Counted from the stretch's first letter, positions 1 through 278 are shown. The stretch is 16,694 nt of DNA from a virus (IMGVR_UViG_2563366825_000009:1-16694); one strand, 5' to 3'. The notes: generated by a model from the letters alone, not told the origin. Program-made: numbers and translations.

Positions 1-95
1 GGTCGCTGGTCGCTGGTCGCTGGTCGCTGGTCGCTGGTCGCTGGTCGCTGGTCGCTGGTCGCTGGTCGCTGGTCGCTGGTCGCTGGTCGCTGGTC
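1..95. repeat. Tandem heptanucleotide repeat (GGTCGCT) x13 perfect copies (1-91) plus a partial copy; truncated by the window start
   Basis: Direct reading: GGTCGCT repeats without interruption from position 1 to 91, then GGTC TGGCA. Unit length 7 is not a multiple of 3; no stop codon in any of the six frames of the array. Confidence 0.95.
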
Positions 96-104
96 TGGCA
101 GCAT
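1..104 (-). CDS. Hypothetical protein, 5' end only (runs off the window start); reads through the heptanucleotide array as repeated QRPATSD heptapeptides
   Basis: ATG at 104-102 (minus) preceded by AAGGA with 7-nt spacing; translation MLPDQRPATSDQRPATSD... No stop before the window edge. Not in the ORF track because it is incomplete. Confidence 0.3.
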   Translation of the reverse strand, partial: MLPDQRPATSDQRPATSDQRPATSDQRPATSDQR

Positions 105-278
105 AAAATCATCCTTTTATGAAAATCAACGTTTTTTGAGCACTCGCACACAAAAAATTACCGCATTGGTTGCAACGACAACCTGCATTTTGCGGAGCAT
201 ATGACAAATAAAGTACGGGTGCGTTGAGGATGCCAGACACATCAGAGGTGGCGGGAGATTACTCCCCTGCCTGGTCTC

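Follow-up and report, generated by a model that had tools for sequence, protein, structure and literature searches.

A heptanucleotide tract at the predicted 5′ coding end of a prophage BcgI-like restriction-modification gene is a probable slipped-strand translational switch

What does a long tandem repeat at the edge of a viral sequence belong to, and could changes in its length decide whether a gene is translated? The window that we analysed, a stretch of 16,694 nt of viral DNA (IMGVR_UViG_2563366825_000009:1-16694), opens inside a 7-bp repeat. An earlier note on this DNA had described 13 copies of GGTCGCT at positions 1–104, and had offered two readings: a slipped-strand switch or a gene for a repeat protein. 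Analysis with TRF bore out the perfect repeat (period 7, 13.6 copies, 100% matches, no indels, consensus GGTCGCT) but moved its end to position 95, since positions 96–104 hold a start codon and non-repeat codons. Read on the minus strand, positions 1–95 are the promoter-proximal end of an (AGCGACC)n tract of 13.6 perfect units that encodes (QRPATSD)n. The edge of the window truncates the tract, as the note had said, and the restriction-modification ORF lies beyond the edge, outside the window.

The minus strand enters the tract as ATAAAAGGATGATTTTATGCTGCCAGACC(AGCGACC)n or, read from further upstream, as ...TTGATTTTCATAAAAGGATGATTTTATGCTGCCAGACC(AGCGACC)n. The note had also proposed a minus-strand ORF with a good Shine-Dalgarno (S-D) sequence that starts at position 104 and runs into QRPATSD repeats, and this ORF is indeed present. 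Its main start codon, ATG (104–102), is followed by CTG CCA (together positions 96–104) and then by GAC at 95–93 to give the first four codons, MLPD, after which the repeat register begins, such that the ORF reads MLPD(QRPATSD)n. The S-D-like sequence, AAGGA (112–116, minus strand), lies 7 nt upstream of this ATG and is invariant in all seven aligned leaders. A second ATG (112–110), overlooked in the note, lies 8 nt upstream of the first in another frame and overlaps a TGA (111–109) within an ATGA at 109–112 on the minus strand. The frame of this second ATG is open into the tract; the codon lacks a properly spaced S-D sequence and is kept in six of the seven aligned leaders, being ATA in L006. 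The third frame is closed by the TGA at 111–109 and has no start codon. The AGCGACC unit is free of stop codons in all six frames, and the same heptapeptide in permuted register, which the note had expected of every frame, is encoded by all three frames of the coding strand.

Upstream of the start codons, an alignment of leaders from divergent lineages contains a conserved block, GTAATTTTT ... TTGATTTT.N.AAAAAGG (117–160, minus strand), which may be a weak promoter or a 5′ UTR. A promoter scan found no consensus promoter between hok and the ATG, this block included; the sole consensus promoter-like site that it found is a sigma-70-like site at the end of Q (637–610, minus strand), where the late promoter, or the hok promoter, is expected. 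For the tract RNA, which is C-rich (three C versus two G per unit), no structure is predicted (z = +1.3).

Over its first 1300 nt, the window matches prophages of E. coli G1/2, G6/7, G8 and SCU-104, and phage PhiR12_3 (ECOR13), with 100% identity. Extending the sequence past the window edge by means of identical prophages indicated that the array is coding, as the 5′ end of an enzyme ORF, rather than non-coding. The full tract comprises 93, 83 and 76 units in the sequences L001, L002 and L003, respectively, and the gene order is Q, hok/sok, leader, tract, enzyme, specificity subunit, (SASA esterase/DUF6645, DUF1378, DUF826), holin, lysozyme, Rz and terminase. The restriction-modification genes therefore lie between hok and the holin/lysozyme genes, in agreement with the late-gene location after Q and hok that the note had suggested. 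Within the window, the hok toxin gene (279–434) directly precedes the tract with respect to transcription; the sok/hok leader RNA (429–603; Rfam sok, 118 bits) and the antiterminator Q gene (634–1059) are on the same, minus, strand, the two genes being placed by PGAP annotation of identical DNA. We take the position of the tract and enzyme to be the accessory-gene (‘moron’) slot that is used by stx genes in Stx phages. Both STEC/EPEC and commensal strains have the carrier prophages, which are lambdoid and related to Stx phages; the tract-bearing lineages occupy different prophage backbones with different Q genes, and one lineage is found in Salmonella.

Coverage of the window by any one complete genome or phage record does not exceed 66%, which appears to be due to an IS21 insertion and mosaicism. 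The IS21-family element (8055–10357, plus strand) is in the early-left region and consists of an istA-like transposase gene (8055–9596; rve and Mu-transposase C-terminal domains) and istB (9608–10357). Since prophages that are otherwise 99% identical (G1/2, SCU-104, PhiR12_3) match only ~62% of the window, this insertion may be specific to the window's source. Imperfect short tandem repeats just upstream of the transposase gene (7752–7791 and 7879–7954; periods 20 and 23, with 2.1 and 3.3 copies by TRF) could be IS21 multiple terminal repeats or phage operator-like repeats. The early-left region of the G1/2 prophage (L158, 11802–12104) holds a remnant of a PstI/BsuBI-family endonuclease and an Eco57I-type methylase; this pair is complete in O111/O157 relatives and resembles the EcoGIII system of Stx phages. 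Given the PstI/BsuBI-type system in related prophages, some of these phages carry two restriction-modification systems.

In the identical and related prophages, a protein of 683 aa (excluding the array) continues from the tract without an in-frame stop. The protein matches PADLOC REase_MTase_IIG (E = 3e-232; profile positions 15–717 of 721 against residues 10–675) and Pfam N6_Mtase (E = 5e-21), with a weak VRR_NUC match at residues 31–87 (E = 9e-4, below the Pfam cut-off). Its translation includes ..NRPDVK..IEYKG.., a motif of the PD-(D/E)xK type in the N-terminal nuclease, and NPPY. Endonuclease and N6-adenine methyltransferase domains are thus combined in one polypeptide, and target-recognition domains are carried by a separate specificity subunit, both as in type IIB (BcgI-like) systems: the neighbouring protein, of 361 aa, has matches to Pfam Methylase_S (E = 2e-19) and to PADLOC Specificity_II (‘Type II specificity subunit’; E = 2e-20). 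We conclude that the enzyme and specificity subunit are predicted to have a BcgI-like type IIB architecture. The alternative in the note, a stand-alone repeat-protein gene, is not supported, since the ORF continues into this 683-aa restriction-modification enzyme.

A sequence search of solved structures with the enzyme gave no matches. An AlphaFold model of the enzyme has a mean pLDDT of 59.9, which is too low for the model to be fit for a fold search; its fairly confident first helix, at residues 11–24, lends weak support to the coding status of the region after the tract. Between lineages, specificity subunits are 27–80% identical and enzymes 83–99.8% identical (L001, L004, L033, L034, L035, L156, L157, L025, L028). 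Diversity of this kind would be as expected if DNA specificities change. The specificity subunit is split into two short ORFs in 04-00955 and 2012EL-2448, and the overall pattern suggests shuffled target-recognition domains or half-size specificity subunits.

The enzyme frame, read both by hand and by script, is open upstream through the whole tract. Tract-less homologues (72–73% identity, 677–686 aa) occur in Neisseria, Providencia and a Methylophilaceae genome, where the proteins start MTQASKKSNKSIEPNIADLANGWLKSY, MARLQSVEPNIADLANGWL and MAQSIEPNIADLANGWL, respectively. The E. coli frame exits the tract as ..SSKSRKSVKSVEPEITELANSWLKSY, and the Neisseria and Providencia homologues begin exactly at that exit point. 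In an alignment of 23 homologues, N19, W21, L22, S24, L27 and Y29 are invariant. PGAP annotates a 653-aa ‘HsdM family methyltransferase’ with a TTG start ~90 nt past the tract, followed by a ‘restriction endonuclease subunit S’; however, this TTG is not conserved, being CTG in L004, L156 and L025, and starting there would drop the invariant residues N19–Y29. Among the lineages compared, the interval from the tract to the conserved enzyme body lacks a conserved canonical start codon. Three database proteins extend from the start region into the full enzyme: P0006 and P0009 begin MLPDQRPATSD..., from the ATG at 104–102, and P0010 begins MILCCQTSDQRP..., from the ATG at 112–110. A repeat unit that is not a multiple of 3 nt is thus located inside an ORF, downstream of the start codon, as in translational phase-variable loci based on simple-sequence repeats (SSRs). 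We conclude that the tract is, to judge from the sequence, the 5′ coding end of a fused endonuclease-methyltransferase gene.

Tract lengths were determined with a query consisting of the 250-nt leader joined to the 250 nt downstream of the tract, for which the match span gives the tract length; 15 loci were read directly, and the remaining lengths are from the match span. Of 5426 complete E. coli genomes, 28, which come from many laboratories, have the locus, with tracts of 16–98 units; tracts in IMG/VR contigs have 8–102 units, and many IMG/VR or short-read contigs break inside the tract, as does this window. Comparison of copy number among related strains, which the note had recommended, showed that it is not invariant. 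G6/7 and G8 have the same 20,500 nt of flanking sequence (100% identity), whereas their tracts consist of 82 and 98 perfect units, respectively; G1/2, whose flank differs by one mismatch and two gaps, has ~92 units. G6/7 is out of frame, G8 is in frame with ATG(104), giving a 917-aa ORF, and G1/2 is in frame with ATG(112), giving 905 aa. Strain E7-1N7 likewise has the enzyme in the frame of ATG(112). Lengths also differ within other isolate sets, grouped by strain-series name and source: an O111:H8 trio (55/82/57), a UCPROB pair (75/82) and an OkiPb trio (23/30/23). Copy number is thus polymorphic between close relatives, as in SSR phase-variable loci, and these isolate differences are polymorphism rather than a measured switching rate or reversibility. 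Four sources that differ in country and host (G6/7, O111:H8 7-32 9A, UCPROB-002 and phage PhiR12_3) share a tract of exactly 82 units (574 nt).

Over the 28 loci, the enzyme is in frame with ATG(112) in 8 cases, with ATG(104) in 7, and with no start codon in 13, a distribution that does not differ from uniform (chi-square, p = 0.26) and that is also expected from a tract without effect on expression. Frame calls were withheld for another two loci, which have indels in their flanks. In-frame ORFs have 707–926 codons, the body ORF is intact wherever it has been sequenced or annotated, and the two wrong frames meet a stop codon 1–8 codons past the tract. Changes in tract length therefore shift an otherwise intact ORF in or out of frame, as in SSR phase-variable loci. 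Taken with the ORF running into the enzyme in one of three frames and the variable copy number, the occurrence of all frame states supports the slipped-strand option that the note had raised. Odd units (AGCGAC, ACC, GCACC and AGCGCGACC), which change the frame, occur in six of the 18 fully read arrays, one or two in each (L001, L006, L029, L030, L031 and L033; five complete-genome assemblies and one IMG/VR contig). These could be assembly or consensus errors, which would blur the frame calls. The G-series assemblies also have frameshifted terminase or DUF6645 genes.

To what extent the enzyme has been selected was assessed by comparing L001, L004/L035, L156 (strain E7-1N7), L025 and L028 from IMG/VR, and L157 from Salmonella. 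Between divergent tract-bearing lineages (dS 0.6–2.5), dN/dS of the enzyme body is 0.04–0.08; for the closest pairs (dS <0.1), it is 0.09–0.24. These values indicate strong purifying selection on the enzyme body. The identical 7-nt unit and the leader ..AAGGATGATYYTATGCTGCCAGACC are kept in each lineage with readable upstream sequence. The Salmonella contig begins ACCAGCAAATTAAG, and hence appears to be broken at the last bases of the tract. No tract-less lineage was seen in the E. coli/Salmonella group among the lineages compared. Given that the unit and leader are kept across lineages and that the enzyme is constrained, the association of tract and enzyme is old, with the enzyme selected throughout, which argues against a dead gene.

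We propose that the tract is a slipped-strand translational ON/OFF switch on a prophage restriction-modification gene of BcgI-like (type IIB/IIG) architecture, and we consider this reading probable. Translation would start at the ATG at 104–102 and proceed through four codons into the tract, read as (QRPATSD)n, and the endonuclease-methyltransferase body would be reached only at tract lengths that put start and body in frame. Slipped-strand mispairing during replication would add or remove units and, because the unit has 7 nt, each unit gained or lost would shift the frame by one. One-third of length classes would be ON by way of ATG(104). A second class, in the frame of ATG(112), could be weakly ON, making the switch possibly three-level; given that ATG(112) has no spaced S-D sequence and is ATA in L006, this state is uncertain, and perhaps weak. 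The third length class, with no start codon, would be OFF. Individual cells of a lysogen population would then be expected to differ in whether they have the enzyme, and with it in their restriction of incoming DNA and in how host and phage DNA is methylated. When untranslated, the C-rich tract RNA might additionally load Rho, adding polarity on the specificity-subunit gene. High-rate slippage within a clone, use of ATG(104), enzyme activity and adaptive switching are components of this proposal that we infer. The well-placed ATG(104) is in frame at only about one-quarter of loci; a disordered extension of 40–230 aa ahead of the nuclease domain might impair the enzyme; and an unmethylated cell could damage itself by turning a fused endonuclease-methyltransferase ON.

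Other readings of the tract have to be weighed against a switch. The slippage-prone tract might knock the enzyme out and restore it by accident, with switching itself unselected. Such drift differs from the proposed switch only in whether switching is selected, the molecular mechanism being identical, and it would be in keeping with a frame distribution that is indistinguishable from uniform, with tracts of 80–100 units that exceed the needs of known switches, and with the status of a restriction-modification system as a prophage accessory gene. We nevertheless regard drift as unlikely, since the tract, the exact unit, the leader and the start codons are kept across lineages with saturated synonymous sites, in a group where a tract-less lineage was not seen, and purifying selection on the enzyme body has been strong throughout. 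It is more improbable still that the tract is a non-coding leader element, either a Rho-loading C-rich site or a length-dependent spacer, with the enzyme starting downstream and the frame irrelevant. Such an element would account for an unstructured, C-rich tract RNA, for a PGAP start ~90 nt past the tract, and for all frames being equally frequent; however, the TTG in question is replaced by CTG in three lineages and would remove family-invariant residues, homologues start at the position of the tract, a conserved S-D sequence and ATG directly precede it, and the PADLOC profile alignment extends to residue 10 after it. The stop-free unit, which encodes the same hydrophilic, proline-containing heptapeptide in every frame, and the existence of in-frame ORFs of 707–917 aa would also suit a disordered N-terminal domain that is always present and that tunes enzyme activity, at the protein level, through its length. 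Homologues, though, function without such an extension and, since no usable start is in frame at roughly one-half to three-quarters of loci, constitutive attachment of the repeat peptide is not possible, leaving this a very unlikely reading.

RefSeq/PGAP places a gene on the opposite strand of the tract in many genomes, namely a ‘YXWGXW repeat-containing protein’ that reads (GRWSLVA)n (L001 3437–4204, corresponding to window positions 1–204, plus strand), and this ORF matches Pfam WXXGXW (PF12779; 21 bits) and an antifreeze beta-roll model (E = 5e-15). That this is the real gene is highly improbable: the ORF owes its existence solely to a unit without stop codons; its name (‘YXWGXW’ or ‘hypothetical’) and its end (4204 versus 4122) vary with tract length; and its TTG start is inside the antisense of the conserved N-terminus of the restriction-modification gene. 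Moreover, GRWSLVA does not contain the W-x-x-G-x-W motif, and the Pfam matches are low-complexity, with no stretch passing alone, such that the ORF is not a genuine conserved motif-repeat protein of the YXWGXW/WXXGXW kind. Both this ORF and the start of the methyltransferase at a non-conserved TTG or later codon look like systematic mis-annotations caused by the repeat. An artefact of assembly or sequencing might be suspected, in that the window, like many short-read contigs, ends in the tract and some long-read assemblies have odd units; but the same tract and flanks occur in 28 complete genomes obtained independently in different laboratories and on different platforms, in the genome of the isolated phage PhiR12_3, and in many IMG/VR contigs. 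The array, for which the note had considered such an artefact, can be taken as real, and we give this explanation almost no credence. The translational switch is thus the reading that we carry forward.

How does the proposed switch compare with known systems? Among host-adapted bacteria, Haemophilus, Neisseria and Moraxella have type III mod genes with phase-variable tetra- or pentanucleotide tracts, and known SSR switches typically have fewer than 40 units. Type I hsdM/hsdS genes with repeats are likewise phase-variable, and a 2019 survey of type I systems makes no mention of Escherichia, prophages or heptanucleotides in its main text (Atack et al. 2019, PMC7383803). Like the SSR phase-variable mod and hsd genes, the E. 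coli locus has a repeat with a unit that is not a multiple of three in the 5′ part of an ORF, its copy number varies, and the frame would set the ON or OFF state. Unlike them, it has a unit of 7 nt, as opposed to 1–5 nt, and reaches ~100 units (~690 bp, ~230 aa); the gene encodes a BcgI-like type IIB enzyme, the hosts are E. coli and Salmonella, and the location is the late region of a lambdoid prophage. The lic1 and lic2A genes of Haemophilus influenzae, which function in lipooligosaccharide modification, have CAAT repeats and alternative ATGs in different frames. The prophage gene resembles them in having more than one start codon in different frames upstream of the repeat, such that strong, weak or no translation would be possible; it is an unrelated gene, however, and use of its second ATG (112–110; ATA in L006) is something that we infer. 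A variable 7-bp repeat is found in the promoter region of the HMW adhesin genes of H. influenzae, where it grades transcription. The two cases share a heptanucleotide unit with a variable copy number that affects expression, at the prophage locus presumptively; there, in contrast, the tract is downstream of the start codon and would act on the reading frame. The type IIB enzyme BcgI is described as having an A2B organisation (cited in PMC12707154). Type IIB enzymes cut DNA to either side of a bipartite recognition site and require AdoMet. To judge from its sequence, the prophage enzyme shares with BcgI a nuclease and an N6-adenine methyltransferase (NPPY) in one polypeptide and a separate specificity subunit with type I-like target-recognition domains; BcgI itself is not known to have a repeat tract.

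The exact repeat is also found at the 5′ end of a second Enterobacterales DNA methyltransferase gene. In Pectobacterium carotovorum DSM 30168 (NZ_FQWI01000003.1; L044 6480–7662), 17 copies of AGCGACC begin three codons after the ATG of an adenine methyltransferase of the EcoRI family (Pfam PF13651, E = 1e-130) that is unrelated to the E. coli enzyme; the gene is in frame (MSTSDQRPATSD...NITTNKTLSKAKKAKKDEFYT). A two-ATG design was rejected for this gene, in which an upstream ATG is followed by TTA TAA and forms a 2-codon mini-ORF. A genome-wide scan for four units otherwise returned mostly short, unrelated GC-rich tracts (Planctomycetota, Streptomyces and others) in intergenic or unrelated contexts, with only the Pectobacterium case relevant. 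A protein search with the bare repeat peptide gave 14 short matches and no new families, and a search of E. coli genomes and phages with the Pectobacterium methyltransferase gave no further tract-bearing relatives. A full-text literature search, whose reach excludes REBASE and subscription journals, found no description of the locus, the repeat or the heptapeptide.

Phase variation in E. coli and Salmonella is classically due to DNA inversion and Dam methylation, and not to simple-sequence repeats. To our knowledge, these species are generally regarded as having no simple-sequence contingency loci, and such a switch is hardly known in E. coli; the prophage locus may be an exception. A working switch would make clonal lysogens heterogeneous in their defence against phages, in their uptake of foreign DNA, and in the methylation of host and phage DNA across the genome. 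In that case, the recurrent assembly breaks at this locus would also be explained by the tract, as would the mis-annotation of the locus in RefSeq, both as an opposite-strand ‘YXWGXW’ ORF and through the truncated methyltransferase start. In addition, the tract is a ready-made hypervariable typing marker for carrier strains.

A more far-reaching reading, which we put forward tentatively as a possibility that may well not hold, is that a temperate phage carries its own hypermutable epigenetic switch, with the two ATGs setting the enzyme to strong, weak or off in each lysogen cell, as bet-hedging for both lysogen and phage. The methylation of the progeny phage from each cell would also depend on the switch, since the genes belong to the Q-dependent late region. 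If this is true, the lysogen would hedge defence against cost or self-damage, and the phage would hedge its host range against related restriction-modification systems. The locus would then represent simple-sequence contingency behaviour, perhaps a phasevarion, in which the state of a methyltransferase alters the expression of many genes, in E. coli and Salmonella.
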